From a virus, in UHGV virus genome UHGV-0033546: DNA of 64,000 nucleotides; one strand, given 5' to 3'. The stretch's first letter is position 1, and each line of letters opens with the position of its first letter. Below, piece after piece: positions 17,535 through 35,194 of this stretch. A model generated the notes under the pieces. The model ran no database searches, was not told the origin of the DNA, and saw only the letters and a program-made list of their open reading frames with translations. Position numbers and translations under genes: made by a program.

Positions 17535-18509
17535 TCACTTCCACTGCATTTCACATGCTAATTGAATGAAAAGATATGCTAAATGTAATTCCGTATTAGC
17601 CGCAATTCCATGATACTGATTATTTTCACCAACAATTTCATACATACGAATAATACTTTGCGGAGTTACACGTGAATAAATTTCTTCGGCAAGTTTACCT
17701 ACGAACCACGAATAATCAGCTGCATATTTTGGTGCTAAAGCTCTGAGTTGTTTAACATCTTTATTTTTGAGAGACTCAAGAACATCATCAATAGCACCAC
17801 GATCGTTAGTAACCAATGATAAAATACCAGCATCCAAAACACCTTTAGATGAATAACTATCGAGCTCACCAATAGTTTTACGAAAATCAGGAAAATTCTT
17901 TTTAACCAAAGCTGCTACAACTTTCATATCAGCTATAGCAATTCCTTCATGCTTGCAGATTTCAGTCAATCGACGAATCATCTGCTTCATCATTTCAATT
18001 TTATCTTCATCAGTCGGTTGACCGAATGTAATAACTCGGCAGCGTGACTGAAGCGGTTTAATAATACCATCAATATTGTTAGCAGTAATAATAATACTAC
18101 AGTTTGAACTATAAGCTTCCATAAAGGAACGAAGATGTCGCTGAGACTCTGCTAACCCTGAACGGTCAAATTCATCAATAACGATTACTTTTTGACGACC
18201 ATCAAATGAAGCTGCACTAGCAAAATTAGTCAAAGGACCACGAACGAAATCAATTTTACAATCTGACCCATTCACAAACATCATATCAGCATTTACATCA
18301 TGACACAATGCTTTTGCTACAGTTGTTTTACCTGTTCCTGGAGAAGGAGAATGAAGAATAATATGTGGAATCTTACCTTTACTTGTAATAGATTTAAAGG
18401 TTTCTTTATCAAAGGCGGGAAGAATACATTCATCGATAGTAGATGGACGATATTTCTGTTCAAGAATGTGTTCTTTTTCATTTACAGTAATCATAATTTC
18501 CTCATTCAA
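17535..18509 (-). CDS. 44: clamp-loader ATPase gp44
   Basis: 324 aa; AAA+ Walker A SPGTGKTT, Walker B VIVIDEFD. Confidence 0.9.
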
Positions 18510-18526
18510 GTTTTAGTGTAAATTAT

Positions 18527-18544
18527 AAAGGGCCGAAGCCCTTT
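18527..18544 (-). terminator. CUUCGG-tetraloop hairpin between 45 and 44
   Basis: AAAGGGC-UUCG-GCCCUUU on minus strand immediately after gene 45 stop. Confidence 0.5.
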
Positions 18545-18545
18545 A

Positions 18546-19232
18546 TTAAAAATCATGGGTAGAATCAGCTTCAAGAGCTACTACATAATTCGCGTGTTCA
18601 CCTTCAAATTTAGCAGCACCTTGTTTACCTTTTGCCCAGAGCAGAAGTTTATAATTTCCTGGTTGCATTTTCATATTTGCCATATTGATAATGAAATTAA
18701 ATGTATTTTCACCATCATAATCACCAAGATTCAAAGAATATTTAACACGGGTCAGAGCAGAATCTTCTACTTTATTAAAACCGTTAATTACGATTTTACC
18801 TTCTTTTACCGTGATAGCAATTGTATCAATTTGCAGACCACGAGATACACGCAACAGTTGTTGAAGGTCTTCAGCTTTAATTTCAGTAACAACAGATGCT
18901 ACCGGGAATGGAATTGGTTTATTAGGAGCAACTACTGTACTCGGATCGGCTGCTGGCCAAAAAATTGTTGAACGAGCATCAGCAATTTTAATATTTCCAT
19001 CTTCTGATTGGGAAATTTCTGCATCATCATTAACTAGGGACAGAATACCGAGAAAACCGTTCAAATCGTAAATTGCTACATCAAAATCAATAGTGTCAGA
19101 AATATTTGCTTCCGCATAAGTTGTACCATTAACTGCGCGAGTCATAATAAATTGACCAGATTTAAGCATAATACCGGAGTTAATAGTAGCGAAATTTTTC
19201 AAAATATTCAGTGTGTCTTTAGATAATTTCAT
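18546..19232 (-). CDS. 45: sliding clamp gp45
   Basis: 228 aa nearly identical to recalled T4 gp45. Confidence 0.95.
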   Translation of the reverse strand: MKLSKDTLNILKNFATINSGIMLKSGQFIMTRAVNGTTYAEANISDTIDFDVAIYDLNGFLGILSLVNDDAEISQSEDGNIKIADARSTIFWPAADPSTVVAPNKPIPFPVASVVTEIKAEDLQQLLRVSRGLQIDTIAITVKEGKIVINGFNKVEDSALTRVKYSLNLGDYDGENTFNFIINMANMKMQPGNYKLLLWAKGKQGAAKFEGEHANYVVALEADSTHDF

Positions 19233-20116
19233 TTCAATTTCCTATTTACATAATAGTTAGACCAGGACCGTACAGCACCCTGATAAGATTCGTCGTTAAA
19301 CCCATTAGCTACTGCAATTTTACGAAATTTATTATAACTCGGTTTTCCGTAAGCATGCCATAAAGATTTTAATTCATCTTCATGTTCAATCCAAGTTCCT
19401 CTAGCTTTAGATTTTCTAAATTTTGATTTGAATTCCGGTGAATTATTTCTAACAGTTGCTTGAATTGAAGCTCTCTGTCTTCTTTCAGCATTATTCCATA
19501 ACTCTTTTTGAGATTTAGAAATTTTTGATTTTACACTTTCTGAATTCATTATATCACTAAACTTTTTAGCATAACTGCAATCAAGATATTTCAATTTCAT
19601 CTTATTTGAAAGTTTAAGCTTTTTCTCATCGGTCCAGTGATTCTTCATTGAATTAGATATTTTGTATTTTACGTCAGAACTATGTTTGTAACCTTTACGA
19701 ATACCAACATAATCGGGCGTAATTTCAGATTGCGAAAGCTTTACAATTTTTCCAGTTAAAACATTTTTATATGTTCCATATCCTTTAGCGCCAATTAAAG
19801 TATTTTCATCTGCGTATGCTTTATTAAAATATTTTATATTACTTTTTGCTTTAACTTTTAATTGAAAAAATCTTTCCAATTTTCTTGGATCTAATATAGT
19901 TTCAGCTAAAATTTTGACGGTATATTTAGTGGTTTTAATAAGCTCAAAATATTCATCGCTATAACTCGATGACACGCTTCCAGTATAAATCTTTCCAGCT
20001 GAATCAATTATATTTGTTCCATCGAAAATTGCGTCAATTTTCGAACCTATATAATAACATGGAAAAATATTTTTAGCTTCCCGCTCTGGAAAGCTAATAA
20101 GATATACTAAATTCAT
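19229..20116 (-). CDS. putative GIY-YIG homing endonuclease with NUMOD-like repeats
   Basis: 295 aa; VYLISF...YYIGS; basic KxS repeats; between rpbA and 45. Confidence 0.55.
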
Positions 20117-20502
20117 TTATTAAAATCAGCCGCAATTGTTTCTGCAACAATTTGAGCAGCGACAATTAGACGTTCATCTGCATTACCACAATAATCATCT
20201 TCAAGGCGTTCACCACATGAAGTCATAATAAATTTAGCACCGGCGTTTAAAGATTCTGTCGTATGTTTGCGCATTAGTTCAATCCATTTATTACTTACTT
20301 CACGATCGATAGCTTCATAATACGCATAACGAGCAGGTGCAGATTTAATTTTATCCTGAATAATTTCCATTGCGTTTTCAGAAAGAGACAAAACCCATGC
20401 TCGACGAATTTTATTTTGGTTTTGTGGATTTGAATCAGAACGCACGTGTTTTGGCTGAATATCTTTTACATCAACAGTATAATTCACAGTAATTTTAGTC
20501 AT
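20113..20502 (-). CDS. rpbA: RNA polymerase-binding protein RpbA-like
   Basis: 129 aa; size and position between 46 and 45 as T4 rpbA; sequence not verified. Confidence 0.55.
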
Positions 20503-20511
20503 AATACACCT

Positions 20512-20700
20512 TTAGTCATAATAATCAGTAACAGTCCAAGCTTCATTTCTGTTGGACATTATTTTCATATATTCTGCTTTAAATGCATTCTTAAGCATAG
20601 ATTCAGTAACTATATGCTCTTCATTAGAAAAATTATTTCTCAGAATATATCGTTTTATTTCAGGAATAGTTAATAGATGCTGTCCAGTTGAATATTCCAT
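20512..20700 (-). CDS. hypothetical protein
   Basis: 62-aa ORF(-). Confidence 0.45.
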   Translation of the reverse strand: MEYSTGQHLLTIPEIKRYILRNNFSNEEHIVTESMLKNAFKAEYMKIMSNRNEAWTVTDYYD

Positions 20701-20755
20701 GTTTTTCCTCCATAGAGATTATACTCTAATAAATTAAAGCATAATCTCTTGTAAA

Positions 20756-22438
20756 TTAAACCATTACAGTAAATCGACCAACTTTCTTCATCTGAAGATG
20801 CTGACCATATTCTTGCGGGTCATGGTCTTTATGTGAAATTATAAAAACATTAGTGTTTTTCATTGAATTTATAATATTAGCTACACCTTTAATACCTTCA
20901 GCATCAAATGACCCGTCAAACACTTCATCGAGTATTAATGTACTAATACTAACACCAGATACAATAGAAGCAATATCACGCCAAGTAAATAAAAGAGCAA
21001 TATCAATTCGCGCTTTTTCACCTTCACTAAATGAAGCATAACTAAAATCTTCACGACCACGGGATTTAATTGTTTCATTAAATTCTTCATCTAATGTAAA
21101 CACATAATCCGCTTCCATTATTTTAAGATAATGGTTAATCTGCTTATTAAATAATGGAATGTACTTTTTAATAATAGCACCTTTAATACCAGAATCTTTG
21201 AGCATATCAGTCAAAATTCCTCTGTGGTATTTTTCCATTACTAAATTAGTTTTTGTTTTAACAATTTTATCAAGTTCTTCTTGAAGCAGTGCTATTTCAT
21301 CAGCATGGTCAATAAACTCGGATGATGCTTTTTCGATAGCCGCTTTAACTTTTTTAGCTTTATCTACTGTGGTGATTAAAGACTGCTTTTTATTGCGAAT
21401 ATCATTTGCCAACGTCTGTTGGGTTTTAATATTATCTCGGTATTCATCAACGAGAACTTTTAAATTATCACGATGTGTTGAAAGCTGTTCAAACGAATGT
21501 GTGCATTCAGAAACTTTATCTTTAATTTTAGAAACAACTTTATCACCGGAACTTAATTGTGACAAACAGGTTGGACATAATCCACCTTCGTGATACATAT
21601 TAATGACTTTATTATACGAGTCAATTTTTGATTTAATTAAAAATGCTTCTTGACCGATTTTATTAAATGCATCAGTCGGGTCTTCATCCAAAACAATATT
21701 AACTAATCTTTCATTAGCTTCTTCTATTTCCGATTTTAGTGTTCTAGCTTCTTTTGCCAAATCATCATACATATTCTGTAGACGAGTAAGATTATCACCA
21801 GTTAATTTTTTCTGGCGTTCAACATTATCGTTATATATTTTAATTTGTTGGATAATACTGTCTTTTTTAACATCAAGCACTTGGTTCTGCGAATTTAATT
21901 CACGTATTAGTGCTTTATTAAGCTTATCCATTTCAGCTAATGTTCCTACCTCAAGCAGGTCTTCCACAAGCTTTCTTCGCGCAGGGGTCGACAAACCCAT
22001 GAAAGGGGTATACCCTGCTGTACCAAGGACAACAATCTGCTTGAAACTGGCATATGACATTCCGATAAGCTGTTCAAATTCTGCTTGGAAATCTTTACTG
22101 CTGGCAGATTCATTAAGACGTGTACCGTTAACGGTGATTTCGAAAACGTTTGGTTTTTGTCCTCTTTTGATATAGTACTTTTTCTCATCATATTCCATCC
22201 ACAATTCAACTAAAAGTTCTTTCTTATTTGTGCTGTTTATTAATTGGCCTTTCTTTACATCACGAAATGGCTTGCCAAAAAGCCCAAATGTGATGGCTTC
22301 TAACATAGTAGACTTACCACCGCCATTTCGTCCAGTAATAAGAGTTTTTTGAACCTTATCTAATTGAATGTCAACTCCATTTTGACCAACTGACATTATA
22401 TTTTTATATTTTACTCTATTAAGTTTAAATGATTTCAT
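20756..22438 (-). CDS. 46: recombination endonuclease subunit gp46 (Rad50/SbcC-like)
   Basis: 560 aa; Walker A GRNGGGKST, coiled coil with CPTC zinc hook, signature/D-loop. Confidence 0.9.
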   Translation of the reverse strand: MKSFKLNRVKYKNIMSVGQNGVDIQLDKVQKTLITGRNGGGKSTMLEAITFGLFGKPFRDVKKGQLINSTNKKELLVELWMEYDEKKYYIKRGQKPNVFEITVNGTRLNESASSKDFQAEFEQLIGMSYASFKQIVVLGTAGYTPFMGLSTPARRKLVEDLLEVGTLAEMDKLNKALIRELNSQNQVLDVKKDSIIQQIKIYNDNVERQKKLTGDNLTRLQNMYDDLAKEARTLKSEIEEANERLVNIVLDEDPTDAFNKIGQEAFLIKSKIDSYNKVINMYHEGGLCPTCLSQLSSGDKVVSKIKDKVSECTHSFEQLSTHRDNLKVLVDEYRDNIKTQQTLANDIRNKKQSLITTVDKAKKVKAAIEKASSEFIDHADEIALLQEELDKIVKTKTNLVMEKYHRGILTDMLKDSGIKGAIIKKYIPLFNKQINHYLKIMEADYVFTLDEEFNETIKSRGREDFSYASFSEGEKARIDIALLFTWRDIASIVSGVSISTLILDEVFDGSFDAEGIKGVANIINSMKNTNVFIISHKDHDPQEYGQHLQMKKVGRFTVMV

Positions 22439-22453
22439 TTTGTATCCAATTGT

Positions 22454-23308
22454 TCACAATGAAGAAAATTCTTTAACTAAAGCCTGTAATGAAGCCTCTA
22501 TTGGATATCCATTCTTAACTAACATTTTCCTAAACATCACATGTTTAGGACGATTATATGATATCCACAATTCATACAATTTATCTTTATTATCCCAATG
22601 ATAGCCTTTTCGTCGAGATGCTATATGAGCTTTTCTAATCTCCGGATTTTTCCAACTAGCAGCTACTGAATTTAATATAGCTATTTTATATTCAGGTTTT
22701 GATAAAGCAGCACGAACAGCCTTTTGGTGTTTAATTTTATTTTCTTCGTTATTAAACCATTCCCTTGAAGCCATTGAAATTTTTTGTTTTGTTTTAAAAT
22801 TATTTAATCTTTCTTTGTTATCTTTCCTATTTTTTGCTACTGAAAAATATTTTAATGCCCTTTCTCTAGCAACATTTCTATTTTGTGGATTTGAATAATA
22901 CTGTTGAAGCCTTTTTGATATTGTGTCACTTACATCCTGTCTTATAAAACTATATTCAGCAGCTATTAAATCAACTTCGGCTAAAGATAAATTTTTATAT
23001 GTTTTTCCTGACATCATTCTATTTAAAGCATTTAGCATTTTTCCATTTTTACCTTTTGCTAATAAGAAATGTGCTTTGAAATGATTAAAATGACTTAAAT
23101 TAACTAAATTCCATGTAGATTTTAAATATTCAGGAAATATTGATTTAGGAAGCACGTGGTGTGCTTCCGTTTTACCTGGAGTTTTAACAGTTGAATTCAT
23201 AGAAATAAAATTAATATAAGACTTGGCGTCTTCTTCACTCAACGCTAATTTTTCAACTAATTCCTTTATTAAAAATTCATCATTAATATCAAGTTTAAAA
23301 TTCTTCAC
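22454..23308 (-). CDS. free-standing HNH homing endonuclease
   Basis: 284 aa; HNH core EAHHVLPKS...NLVNLSHFNHFKAH; NUMOD-like repeats. Confidence 0.7.
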   Translation of the reverse strand: MKNFKLDINDEFLIKELVEKLALSEEDAKSYINFISMNSTVKTPGKTEAHHVLPKSIFPEYLKSTWNLVNLSHFNHFKAHFLLAKGKNGKMLNALNRMMSGKTYKNLSLAEVDLIAAEYSFIRQDVSDTISKRLQQYYSNPQNRNVARERALKYFSVAKNRKDNKERLNNFKTKQKISMASREWFNNEENKIKHQKAVRAALSKPEYKIAILNSVAASWKNPEIRKAHIASRRKGYHWDNKDKLYELWISYNRPKHVMFRKMLVKNGYPIEASLQALVKEFSSL

Positions 23309-23520
23309 AAAAGATTCCTTTTAATGTATCTTTTAGACCATTCTATCATATCATCATAATCTAAAAAGTATTCATCAAATTCAGCCATGCAAACAACACC
23401 TTGTGCTGCTTTTGATGTGATATAAATTATTCCAACATATCTAGAATCTTCTTCGGTGTAATCAATATTTGCTATGAATTCATCATTAATGTCAAATGTC
23501 GAAAACTTCACAGTATGCAT
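23305..23520 (-). CDS. hypothetical protein
   Basis: 71 aa from ATG 23520 (AAGGA SD). Confidence 0.45.
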   Translation of the reverse strand: MHTVKFSTFDINDEFIANIDYTEEDSRYVGIIYITSKAAQGVVCMAEFDEYFLDYDDMIEWSKRYIKRNLL

Positions 23521-23755
23521 CCTTAATACAAGATATGGCTGTATCTTGTATTGATTTAGGTGTGTCATTATCTAAAATGTTGAAGTTAAAAGATACAGCC
23601 CAGTCAGTGCAGACCGTAACCTTTTTAATACAGTTATCTTCAACTTCTAGTGGTTCAAACCAGTATTCAATAATTTCTTTATGACCAATATCATCTTTTA
23701 CTTCGCATTCAAAATGCTGACTCATCATAACATTTTTAAATTCATCAAAAGTCAT
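23492..23755 (-). CDS. hypothetical protein
   Basis: 87-aa ORF(-) coupled to gene 47 stop. Confidence 0.45.
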   Translation of the reverse strand: MTFDEFKNVMMSQHFECEVKDDIGHKEIIEYWFEPLEVEDNCIKKVTVCTDWAVSFNFNILDNDTPKSIQDTAISCIKDAYCEVFDI

Positions 23756-24771
23756 TGTGTTGCCTCTACATATAACTGATTTGCATATTGAATAAGTGCT
23801 TCGCGATCAGAATCAGTGATGTCTGGAATTGCATTAATGTATTCTTCCATCAATGTCTGGAGAGATTGAACTTCAACTTCTTCACTATCATCTGACTCGA
23901 CAGAGTTATCAATCTTTGACACAACTCGTAACGAATGCACAACTTTTTCTAGTTCGGATTCGAACTTCGTTAGATTTTTGTCTACTTCAGTTACTATAAC
24001 ACGTACTGATAGATTTGTAAAATCTTTATAGTCAATTTTCCCCTTAAATGGATATTGAATTCGACGATGCCAGGTGGTGTTGTTTGGAATAAATTCCATT
24101 CGTTCTGTTTCTGTATCAAACATCCAGAACCCGCGAGGGTCATTCTCGTCACCTGCAGTTAGTGTCCATGGTGTCCCAATATATCTGACGTTAGCAGCCT
24201 CAGAGATAGTATGGAAGTGACCAGACCACACCTCTTTATAAGTCTTAAGGAAATCAGGTTCAAGACCGTGAGATTTCATTCCTTTATAAAAATAAAATCC
24301 ATTCAGTTCCCAGTGACCGACACAAAAAGAAGCAGATGAAGTTTTGATATGCTCAAGAATTTCACCAGTATTTTCTTCGCACATCCAGGGAATTAAATCA
24401 ATCAAACATCCGTCAAAATCTACTGTGGTAGGCTTATCATATACTTTAACATTAGGATATTTAGCCAAAAGCTCAGTAGAAGCATTTGGATGCATTACAT
24501 TTTTGTAGTGGAGATCGTGATTTCCTACAATAGTATGTAGGGTAATACCAGCATCATCAAGCATTTGAACTATTTCACGAGCGAACTCCATAGTTTTATG
24601 TGTGATTGCTTTTCGCACATCAAAAATATCGCCATATTGAATCCATGTAGTAATTCCATTTTTCTTAGAATATTCTATCGCTTGTTTAATTCCATCAATT
24701 TGAATACCGCGAATCCACTCATCATCAGCTTTAACACCTAAATGCCAATCACCTAAATTTAAAATTTTCAT
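23752..24771 (-). CDS. 47: recombination endonuclease subunit gp47 (Mre11/SbcD-like)
   Basis: 339 aa; calcineurin-like phosphoesterase motifs (GDWHLG, GNHDL). Confidence 0.9.
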   Translation of the reverse strand: MKILNLGDWHLGVKADDEWIRGIQIDGIKQAIEYSKKNGITTWIQYGDIFDVRKAITHKTMEFAREIVQMLDDAGITLHTIVGNHDLHYKNVMHPNASTELLAKYPNVKVYDKPTTVDFDGCLIDLIPWMCEENTGEILEHIKTSSASFCVGHWELNGFYFYKGMKSHGLEPDFLKTYKEVWSGHFHTISEAANVRYIGTPWTLTAGDENDPRGFWMFDTETERMEFIPNNTTWHRRIQYPFKGKIDYKDFTNLSVRVIVTEVDKNLTKFESELEKVVHSLRVVSKIDNSVESDDSEEVEVQSLQTLMEEYINAIPDITDSDREALIQYANQLYVEATQ

Positions 24772-24931
24772 ATGTCAAGAACCGTCATTGAAATGCAAAA
24801 TAAAATTATTGAAATAAACCCATCTGGTGTGCTAAAGAACCCAATCCAACATGCTCTAGTGAATAAATAAAACGCGAGAAAAAGTATCACATATCCAAGA
24901 AATATCATTATATCAAACTCCGTATAAAGCT

Positions 24932-30957: not shown

Positions 30958-32771
30958 TGATGCTTAACCCTATGCATGATTTCTTTATTTTTACCGAGAT
31001 TAAATCCGCGTTCGTTCGGGTTTCCCAAATATCCGCATGTTCTTCTTATGGTATTCATCTTTTTAGGATCAGTTTCTCCACAAATAGAACAAACAAATCC
31101 GGTTTCAGTAGGAGTCATTTCATGGGTACTTCCACATGTAAAACATTTATCTACTGGCATGTTAACACCAAAATAATCTAAATGTTGTGCAGCATAATCC
31201 CATACAGCCTCAAGACCTTTTAAGTTATTTTTCATATCAGGAAGTTCAACATAAGAAATGTGACCACCTGTTGCAATGAAATGATATGGTGCTTCACGAG
31301 AAATCTTTTCAAACGGGGTGATATTTTCTTCTACTGAAACGTGGAAACTGTTAGTGTACCAGCCTTTATCAGTAACATCCTTTACACTTCCATATTTTTC
31401 GGTATCAAGTTTACAGAAGCGATAACAAAGGTTTTCAGCGGGTGTAGAATACAAGCTAAAAGCAAAACCGGTTCTTTCAGTCCACTGCTTAAGATGAGCA
31501 TTCATTTTAGTTAAAATTTCCTGTCCAATATCACGACCAACAAGAATATTCAATTCATGAATACCAATGTATCCTAGAGACACTGAACTTCTGCCGTTTT
31601 TAAATAACTCAATTATATCGTCATCAGGTTTAAGACGAACCCCGAATGCACCTTCTTGATAAAGAATAGGAGCAACAGTCGCTTTAACTCCTTTTAAGGA
31701 ACTAATTCTACACATCAAAGCTTCAAAACACAAATCCATTCGCTCATTGAATAATTCAACAAATTTCTGTTCATTGAACTGTGTTCCAATATAAGAATCT
31801 AACGCAATGCGAGGAAGATTCAGTGTTACAACACCAAGATTATTACGTCCATCAAGAATTTCATTACCAGTCGAATCTTTCCATACGCTCAAGAAACTAC
31901 GGCAACCCATTGGAGAAACAGGAACAGATGAACCAGTGATAGCTTTATTGTTCTTAGCTGAAATAATATCAGGATACATCCTTTTGCTTGCACACTCTAG
32001 AGCAAGCAGTTTAATATCATAGTTCGGGTCGTCTTTATAAAGATTAACACCTTCTTCAACGAACATAACAAGCTTAGGGAAAATAGGAGTTATCCCATCA
32101 CGACCAAGACCTTTAATGCGATTTTTCAGAATTGCTTTCTGAATCATTCGTTCAGTCCAGTCAGTTCCCGTACCAAATGTAATTGTTACAAAAGGCGTTT
32201 GTCCGTTTGAACTAAAGAGAGTATTTACTTCATATTCATAAGCTTGGAATGCATCGTATACGTCTTTTTCTGTTTTAGATTGAGCATAATTTAACGCATC
32301 AGCGATTTGCCATTTTTCTGCATCCTCAATATGTTTTGCATAGGTGCGTTTAACATAAGGAGAAAGTACTTTATCTACATTCGCAAAAGTCGTTCCGCCA
32401 TATTGGTGAGAAGCAACCTGTGCAGTAATTTGTGCCATAATTGCAGTAGCAACGCCAATTGATTTAGGAGTTTCAATCTGTGCATTACCAAGCTTAAATC
32501 CGTTCTCAAGCATTCCTTTTAAATCTACTAAACAGCAATTAGTAAATGGAAGAGCAGGGGAATAATCAATATCGTGGAAATGAATAATTCCGCTTTCATG
32601 CGCTTTCATAATAAAAGACGGGACCATATTTTTGGCAATGTGTTTAGACACAATACCAGCCATAAGGTCCCGTTGAGTTGGAAAAACACGAGAATCTTTA
32701 TTAGCATTCTCGTTTAAAAGGTCTTTATTAGTTTTATGAATTAATCCTTCAATTTCTTTTTCAATTGTCAT
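30954..32771 (-). CDS. nrdD: anaerobic ribonucleoside-triphosphate reductase NrdD (intronless)
   Basis: 605 aa continuous; C-terminal glycyl radical RRTCGYLG; zinc ribbon CFTCGS...CSICGE. Confidence 0.95.
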   Translation of the reverse strand: MTIEKEIEGLIHKTNKDLLNENANKDSRVFPTQRDLMAGIVSKHIAKNMVPSFIMKAHESGIIHFHDIDYSPALPFTNCCLVDLKGMLENGFKLGNAQIETPKSIGVATAIMAQITAQVASHQYGGTTFANVDKVLSPYVKRTYAKHIEDAEKWQIADALNYAQSKTEKDVYDAFQAYEYEVNTLFSSNGQTPFVTITFGTGTDWTERMIQKAILKNRIKGLGRDGITPIFPKLVMFVEEGVNLYKDDPNYDIKLLALECASKRMYPDIISAKNNKAITGSSVPVSPMGCRSFLSVWKDSTGNEILDGRNNLGVVTLNLPRIALDSYIGTQFNEQKFVELFNERMDLCFEALMCRISSLKGVKATVAPILYQEGAFGVRLKPDDDIIELFKNGRSSVSLGYIGIHELNILVGRDIGQEILTKMNAHLKQWTERTGFAFSLYSTPAENLCYRFCKLDTEKYGSVKDVTDKGWYTNSFHVSVEENITPFEKISREAPYHFIATGGHISYVELPDMKNNLKGLEAVWDYAAQHLDYFGVNMPVDKCFTCGSTHEMTPTETGFVCSICGETDPKKMNTIRRTCGYLGNPNERGFNLGKNKEIMHRVKHQ

Positions 32772-34890: not shown

Positions 34891-35194
34891 TTTCTTCTCG
34901 GTTAAATCGGTGTTTGCAATGACGGCATTTATAACGAAGAATACTAGTCTGCCAATGAATTAATTGAACCTGTTCAGTACCGCATTCAGGACAATTAGGA
35001 ACGTTTTTAGAAGCCCTTTCACGACGTTCAACCATAACCATAATAGCATCCCAGGCTGGAGGTTTAAAATCTAAATCATCACAACCATGAATCTTTCCAC
35101 GCATTTCCAGATCGTCTTCTTCACCCGCTATAATAATTTTAATTAGACTGGAATTACTTGAAGCTGCAATATCTTCTAATAGACGCTTTTTCAT
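34877..35194 (-). CDS. hypothetical zinc-ribbon protein
   Basis: 105 aa; CPECG...CRHCKH. Confidence 0.5.

Follow-up and report, generated by a model that had tools for sequence, protein, structure and literature searches.

Two genes in a 64-kb window of Tequatrovirus DNA (64,000 nucleotides of the virus genome UHGV-0033546, the whole stretch analyzed here and the one to which window positions refer) encode putative nucleases with different heads and homologous C-terminal tails. On sequence grounds, the product of gene G (19229..20116, minus strand; 295 amino acids (aa); between gene 45 and rpbA) is a free-standing GIY-YIG homing endonuclease of the SegG type, and the product of gene H (22454..23308, minus strand; 284 aa; GTG start; at the 5′ end of gene 46, between 46 and 46.1) is a free-standing HNH homing endonuclease of the MobD type. 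The explanation favored here, with a probability of about 0.85, is that G and H are independent genes encoding three-part proteins (a nuclease head, NUMOD3-like repeats, and a terminal module), with homing as their presumed mechanism. Their tails would be homologous because both were drawn from a shared pool of DNA-binding "beads", which the T4-type seg and mob endonucleases have recombined often.

An earlier note, made from the sequence of the window alone, had placed the two open reading frames (ORFs) at these minus-strand coordinates, and had proposed that a GIY-YIG and an HNH endonuclease share a homologous C-terminal module of about 50 residues; the peptides that it quoted were located at G residues 246-282 and H residues 242-279. 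Local alignment bore out the homology. BLASTP comparison of the last ~60 residues of the two proteins, with compositional adjustment, gave 19 identities in 53 positions (36%; E = 5e-10), and the similarity thus survives composition correction, the point on which the note had made its claim depend. A Smith-Waterman alignment of the last ~55 residues scored 82, compared with a mean of 23 for 2000 shuffles (sd 4.6, maximum 50-52), corresponding to z = 13 and a Gumbel p of ~3e-8. The full extent of the similarity is greater than the note had supposed: full-length BLASTP aligned G93-286 with H70-282 (27% identity over 221 columns, E 2e-12), and the middle region taken alone (G91-240 / H66-235) gave z = 7.8 and p ~2e-5. 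The N-terminal ~65-90 residues are unrelated (z = 0.3), in keeping with the claim that the two nuclease cores are different. The shared region is a tail of ~150-200 residues, consisting of helical repeats and the terminal module, the similarity extending upstream of the module over ~100 aa of basic repeats.

Residues 1-102 of G (19811..20116, minus strand) form a putative GIY-YIG nuclease domain of the SegG type, with 39% identity to residues 1-100 of T4 SegG (E 8e-15). SegG is listed as a GIY-YIG homing endonuclease (PMC2988022, PMC2330249), and shares with G the N-terminal MN(I/L)VY, as well as the YYIGSK and YFN motifs. The G head was found to have the GIY-YIG alpha/beta fold, with a predicted local distance difference test (pLDDT) score of 80-93 in the predicted model, and G matched PHROG 655, "homing endonuclease" (E 3e-32), and PHROG 7504 (E 3.4e-17). 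Alignment of the G/SegG family revealed that Y5, Y22 (in YYIGSK), E81, and N98 (in YFNK) are invariant, and comparison of this family with canonical Seg heads by hhalign gave a probability of 68% (E 5e-5), the match covering only that half which holds the Glu and Asn. The two genes differ in location, SegG lying between genes 32 and 59 and G at 45/rpbA, and in their C-terminal halves: the profile of the terminal module, described below, detects no module in SegG, whereas G bears a tail of the MobD/SegA type. By eye, SegG residues ~150-200 (L006 47909-48541; ...YENYVLLLSSNLYGKTPGWRRVKGNINITDTTAKSMVKYFNSG...) look loosely module-like, and a degenerate module may survive in the C-terminal part of SegG.

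The HNH core of H (residues ~44-90; 23039..23179, minus strand) contains H50, H51, P54, N67, H76, and H80, which are invariant in a family alignment of 25 relatives, including T4 MobB-E. A profile of the H family matched HNH nucleases of solved structure, namely the HNH domain of a group II intron maturase (6me0, E 2.9e-5) and McrA (6ghc, E 6.3e-5), and, more weakly, Cas8f-HNH (2.6e-4) and pyocin AP41 (1.4e-3); IscB was matched as well. H matched PHROG 655 (E 1.2e-44) and PHROG 12434, "HNH endonuclease" (E 4.8e-15), and 11 module-bearing relatives matched PF01844. Over the head, H aligns with T4 MobB, MobC, and MobE, and from the HNH motif to the C-terminus it is 30% identical to T4 MobD (243 aa, E 6e-17), a free-standing HNH homing endonuclease listed as not yet characterized (PMC2988022). 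MobD has the same HNH head, basic repeats of ~17 aa, and terminal module as H. It differs from H in adjoining nrdC.11, whereas H sits at the 5′ end of gene 46, and in having a shorter N-terminal extension; the stretch lying between the HH and the N of the motif reads KSIFPEYLKSTW in H and GGxDDxxN in the T4 Mob proteins.

Between the head and the module, both proteins contain runs of basic units of ~16-18 residues, in agreement with the basic KxS repeats that the note had read in each of them. The helical repeats of G (~16-18 aa) span residues 141-232 (19421..19696, minus strand), and were delineated from model helices, a weak NUMOD3 match, and similarity to the middle of H; in the AlphaFold model, each repeat unit forms one helix (residues 147-160, 163-177, 180-190, 193-208, 210-224, and 227-234). 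The ~17-aa repeats of H span residues 125-227 (22628..22936, minus strand), follow the pattern PExRxKxSxxxKxxWxN, and align with the repeats of G and MobD. The Pfam model of NUMOD3 (PF07460) gave no match in H, and matched G residues 142-158 below the gathering score (E 0.65; 10.4 bits, with 20.4 required). The repeats are termed NUMOD3-like, because the match in G is sub-threshold while significant NUMOD3 matches occur in 25 of the 90 module-bearing relatives.

The terminal module occupies residues 233-290 of G, after a basic arm (19247..19420, minus strand), and residues 228-284 of H (22457..22627, minus strand), where it scores 76.1 bits against the module profile and is 36% identical to the G module. 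Its ~55-residue consensus is R-K-g-x-h-W-x2-y-D-E-L-y-x-L-W-x5-K-P-x4-F-R-k-i-A-v-x-n-G-Y-P-D-x-s-Y-x2-m-V-x2-F. When the module profile was searched exhaustively against 1.84 billion representative proteins (cut-off E <= 1e-3), 90 proteins were retrieved, 18 of them at E <= 1e-10; a word-indexed homologue search with the module alignment had given no matches. Nearly all of these proteins are 200-400 aa long and carry the module at the extreme C-terminus, some in two or three tandem copies. Assignment of the heads by sequence motifs gave ~41 GIY-type proteins, ~32 HNH-type proteins, and 22 that are fragments or unclassified; in the 90 proteins, Pfam found HNH-type families in ~15, and GIY-YIG or SegE_GIY-YIG in up to 10. 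The search for the module elsewhere, which the note had recommended for other phage endonucleases, placed it in 90 protein clusters and on both types of head. A few database proteins consist of one to three copies of the module without a nuclease head (P0018, 121 aa; P0070, 201 aa; P0030, 52 aa; P0048, 65 aa). These could be fragments of broken endonucleases, or derived stand-alone DNA-binding proteins, and in P0018 and P0070 the module may exist on its own.

The sharing of the module between the two nuclease families occurs already within T4, since SegA (48-50 bits), SegF (17-18 bits), and MobD (69 bits) all carry it, encoded by three dispersed genes. The GIY-YIG enzymes SegA and SegF end in the same module as G and H, but have canonical Seg heads (Y.GSG), where G has one of the SegG type, and their linkers differ too. 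The converse combinations are also found: P0005 and P0006 carry a SegG-like head, as in G, on a different tail, and P0009-P0011 join an H-like head to an I-TevI-type helix-turn-helix (HTH) tail. When each module was assigned its nearest neighbor, the neighbor belonged to a protein with the other type of head in 36 of 93 cases, a result that fits repeated, old shuffling.

Modular DNA-binding tails that occur in both the GIY-YIG and the HNH family are already established, and G and H are an ordinary instance. Small modules were described in a "beads-on-a-string" arrangement in both endonuclease families (PMC2988022), domain shuffling between homing endonuclease genes has been described explicitly (PMC10448857), and the NUMODs, a concept of Sitbon and Pietrokovski (2003), are common to GIY-YIG and HNH enzymes (as cited in PMC2330249, PMC1564403, and PMC3239194). 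I-TevI, I-HmuI, and the NUMOD concept offer the same layout as G and H, in which short helical minor-groove repeats (NUMOD3) link a nuclease head to a terminal HTH, with modules reused by both families. G and H depart from it in that the zinc finger of I-TevI is absent from both, and in that their terminal module differs from the I-TevI-type HTH.

The genomic setting of G and H is consistent with that of optional elements. Bases 18500-24800 of the window have matches covering at least 80% of their length in Escherichia phage EC121 and in ~90 further Tequatrovirus records, and the best-matching records, EC121 included, are 97-97.5% identical. On the minus strand, the genes run in the order 44, 45, G, rpbA, 45.2, 46, H, 46.1, 46.2, and 47, whereas in T4 gene 45 directly adjoins rpbA, gene 46 directly adjoins 46.1, and neither G nor H is found there. 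Comparison with T4 by blastn revealed that window positions 19244-20118 (875 bp, essentially ORF G) stand in place of the 51-bp 45/rpbA intergenic region, that positions ~22430-23286 (ORF H) are inserted a few codons into gene 46, and that the T4 flanks are 96-97% identical right up to both insert edges. Among the matches listed, at least five records cover the whole 6.3-kb query, and many others cover 86% of it in two pieces, which fits the absence of one ~870-bp element; both genes were found to be polymorphic for presence and absence at a fixed site, G being absent from some related phages. Given the boundaries in T4 and the partial coverage in relatives, G and H behave as optional cassettes at fixed sites. 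At 95% identity or more, 25 phage records have the G module; at 99% or more, 72 have that of H. At the corresponding genome position, the H module sequence is 100% identical in T2 and RB68, and T6 also matches there.

In the proposed mechanism, the tail would first bind a long site, on or close to the unoccupied insertion point, in phages without the gene; G would target the 45/rpbA junction, and H the 5′ end of gene 46. The tethered head would then nick or cut near the tail-bound site, and recombinational repair during mixed infection would copy the endonuclease gene, together with its flanks, into the cut genome.

Several points weigh against this reading. No Pfam GIY-YIG model (PF01541, PF19835) matches G at E <= 1, no Pfam HNH model matches the single sequence of H, and searches of NCBIfam and Pfam with the single proteins G and H returned nothing significant. 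The catalytic residues of GIY-YIG domains are two motif tyrosines, an Arg, a Glu, and an Asn, and the Arg is conserved in I-TevI-type domains; the G/SegG alignment has no invariant Arg after the YIG strand, and K26 and K42 are invariant instead. The interleaving of the two head types among the modules could in part reflect the weak phylogenetic signal of a 55-residue domain, rather than many swaps. Finally, it is only inferred that the module binds DNA, that the two insertion sites are the targets, and that G and H have nuclease activity.

A different history of the same parts is a serious candidate, although we place it short of an even chance. A MobD-like protein may have provided the whole scaffold of repeats and module, and the G lineage may have replaced the HNH head by a SegG-type GIY-YIG head, so that the unit exchanged was the nuclease. 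The similarity between G and H does begin just after the heads (G93 / H70) and runs for ~200 residues, H and MobD have the same overall layout, and the G-type head appears without a detectable module in T4 SegG, and on other tails in P0005 and P0006. However, the repeats in the middle are degenerate and modestly similar (z 7.8), and an origin on the Seg side is equally possible because the canonical SegA and SegF carry the module too; the data at hand do not reveal which way the exchange went.

The role of the terminal module bears on the favored explanation, in which G and H owe their tails to a pool of DNA-binding parts. A basic, homeodomain-like HTH of three helices is predicted for the module. 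AlphaFold, supplied with an 87-sequence alignment, gave three helices (G residues 241-255, 261-270, and 279-292) with a core pLDDT of 83-87, and in our reading the stretch A-V-x-N-G-Y-P-D-x-S-Y-x-x-M-V fits the HTH pattern. The mean net charge of the module is +3.9, and a conserved R/K-rich arm precedes it. DNA binding is considered its most likely role, because of the basic charge, the basic arm, the HTH-like stretch, the terminal position, and the tandem occurrence. It is improbable, by comparison, that the module does not bind DNA, and instead serves for dimerization or for docking to another protein, of phage or host. Conserved hydrophobic residues predominate in helix 3, as might suit such a function, and the assignment of DNA binding is indirect; yet the module has the same terminal placement as the DNA-binding domains of I-TevI and the T4 mob proteins (PMC2988022), it is basic like the arm before it, it forms tandem arrays and adjoins NUMOD3 repeats, and the best structural neighbors of the predicted fold are the DNA-binding domains of transposases and homeodomains.

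Comparisons with known families were largely negative. No Pfam-A family covers the module in the 90 proteins, and its copies in T4 SegA, SegF, and MobD are missed as well; NUMOD1 (IENR1) was matched in none of the 90, and sequence searches of the PDB with G, with H, and with the module profile found no relative. The possibility that the module is the terminal HTH of the I-TevI type, as present in I-TevI, SegD, MobB, MobC, and I-TevII, was rejected (hhalign probability 0.5%). The N-terminal repeats of I-Bth0305I were described as similar to NUMOD2 (PMC3239194), and the module profile, run on two 50-kb pieces of phage 0305phi8-36, did not match I-Bth0305I even at E 100 with filters off. We suggest, tentatively and at rather less than even odds, that the module, as a homeodomain-like HTH preceded by a basic arm, represents a family of its own among the nuclease-associated DNA-binding domains, as yet unnamed and apart from NUMOD1, NUMOD3, and NUMOD4, NUMOD2 being compared through the I-Bth0305I repeats only. 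Such a family would occur singly or in tandem on Seg-type GIY-YIG and Mob-type HNH enzymes, including T4 SegA, SegF, and MobD.

The earlier note had taken two different nuclease cores with the same module within 4 kb to suggest modular exchange. A recent local event of this kind, in which the tail or module was copied between G and H by recombination in this genome or lineage, has in its favor the proximity of the genes and the extension of the similarity over the whole tail, and is nevertheless very unlikely. The two modules are only 32-36% identical, and blastn detected no colinear nucleotide similarity between G and H. Outside its own family, the G module is closest to that of an HNH protein (P0029, 47%), and the H module to that of a GIY protein (P0042, 52%), both values being above the identity of G to H. 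The G family, moreover, adjoins gene 45 in more distant phages too, with a module that is 73-74% identical, and the modules of T4 are dispersed. Local exchange was rejected on the nucleotide and nearest-neighbor evidence. Domain shuffling therefore stands as a process over evolutionary time, seen in both head types and ~90 clusters, and not as an exchange between G and H: because there is no similarity at the DNA level and each module has its closest relative elsewhere, the shuffling is old and family-wide, and the 4-kb proximity simply reflects the dense stocking of T4-like genomes with such genes, of which T4 has 15 (PMC2988022). A chance or compositional resemblance of two lysine-rich, low-complexity tails has a negligible probability, for although K/S/E-rich, repetitive tails can inflate local alignment scores, the last ~55 residues are not of low complexity, none of the 2000 composition-preserving shuffles reached the observed score, the composition-adjusted BLASTP similarity persisted, and the family that the module profile retrieved is coherent, with W, L, LW, P, F, and GYP conserved, which together refute it.

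The existing picture of homing endonuclease evolution is unchanged by G and H, and the only element that is possibly new is the module itself, in that it has no name, family model, or structure. The gain is mainly one of annotation: most deposited records read "hypothetical protein", where G can be described as a SegG-like GIY-YIG, and H as a MobD-like HNH, free-standing homing endonuclease. A family model for the terminal module would be useful, since Pfam-A misses the T4 SegA, SegF, and MobD copies. Should the module turn out to bind DNA autonomously and sequence-specifically, it would provide an additional part for chimeric nucleases of the I-TevI fusion type, and would aid the prediction of homing sites.

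At the H insert, the ancestral start of gene 46 (23287..23308, minus strand; GTG and the codons for MKNFKL) now serves as the start of H, and is in the same register as, and identical to, T4 34963-34984. Sequence and blastn boundaries place a replacement gene-46 start (22420..22438, minus strand; ATG and MKSFKL) at the 3′ edge of the insert, and the gene-46 5′ end is thus present on either side as a diverged direct repeat. It might be speculated that the differing codons 2-3 of this repeat, AAA TCA versus AAG AAT, shield the occupied allele from cleavage.

At the other site, ATGA overlaps join G to both of its neighbors (rpbA stop/G start at 20113-20116, and G stop/gene 45 start at 19229-19232). 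In T4, positions 32614-32664 (L004), minus strand, contain TGCTTTA followed by TATAAA, which we take to resemble a MotA-dependent middle promoter. If the 51-bp region of T4 is a promoter, gene 45 in the window phage would have to be expressed by read-through or from a promoter within G. A scan of both genes for T4 late and MotA-type promoter patterns found no exact match inside G or H. A loose MotA-box-like TGCTTAC, with TATAAT 13 nt later (19331-19355, minus strand), which does not match the strict pattern, lies upstream of gene 45, where G encodes its module.

Phage N2 has a third endonuclease gene between 45.2 and 46, on the opposite strand (L002 2756-3472); its product has no module of the G/H type, and combines a Mob-like HNH head with repeated Cys/His units (CxxC...WHxxNC). 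The window copies of G and H are intact, and two of the relatives show signs of decay: the EC121 copy of G (L001 1230-2117) is interrupted by stop codons within ~15 codons of its beginning, its annotation using a later start, and the RB68 copy of H (P0008, 208 aa) is frameshifted after residue ~176.

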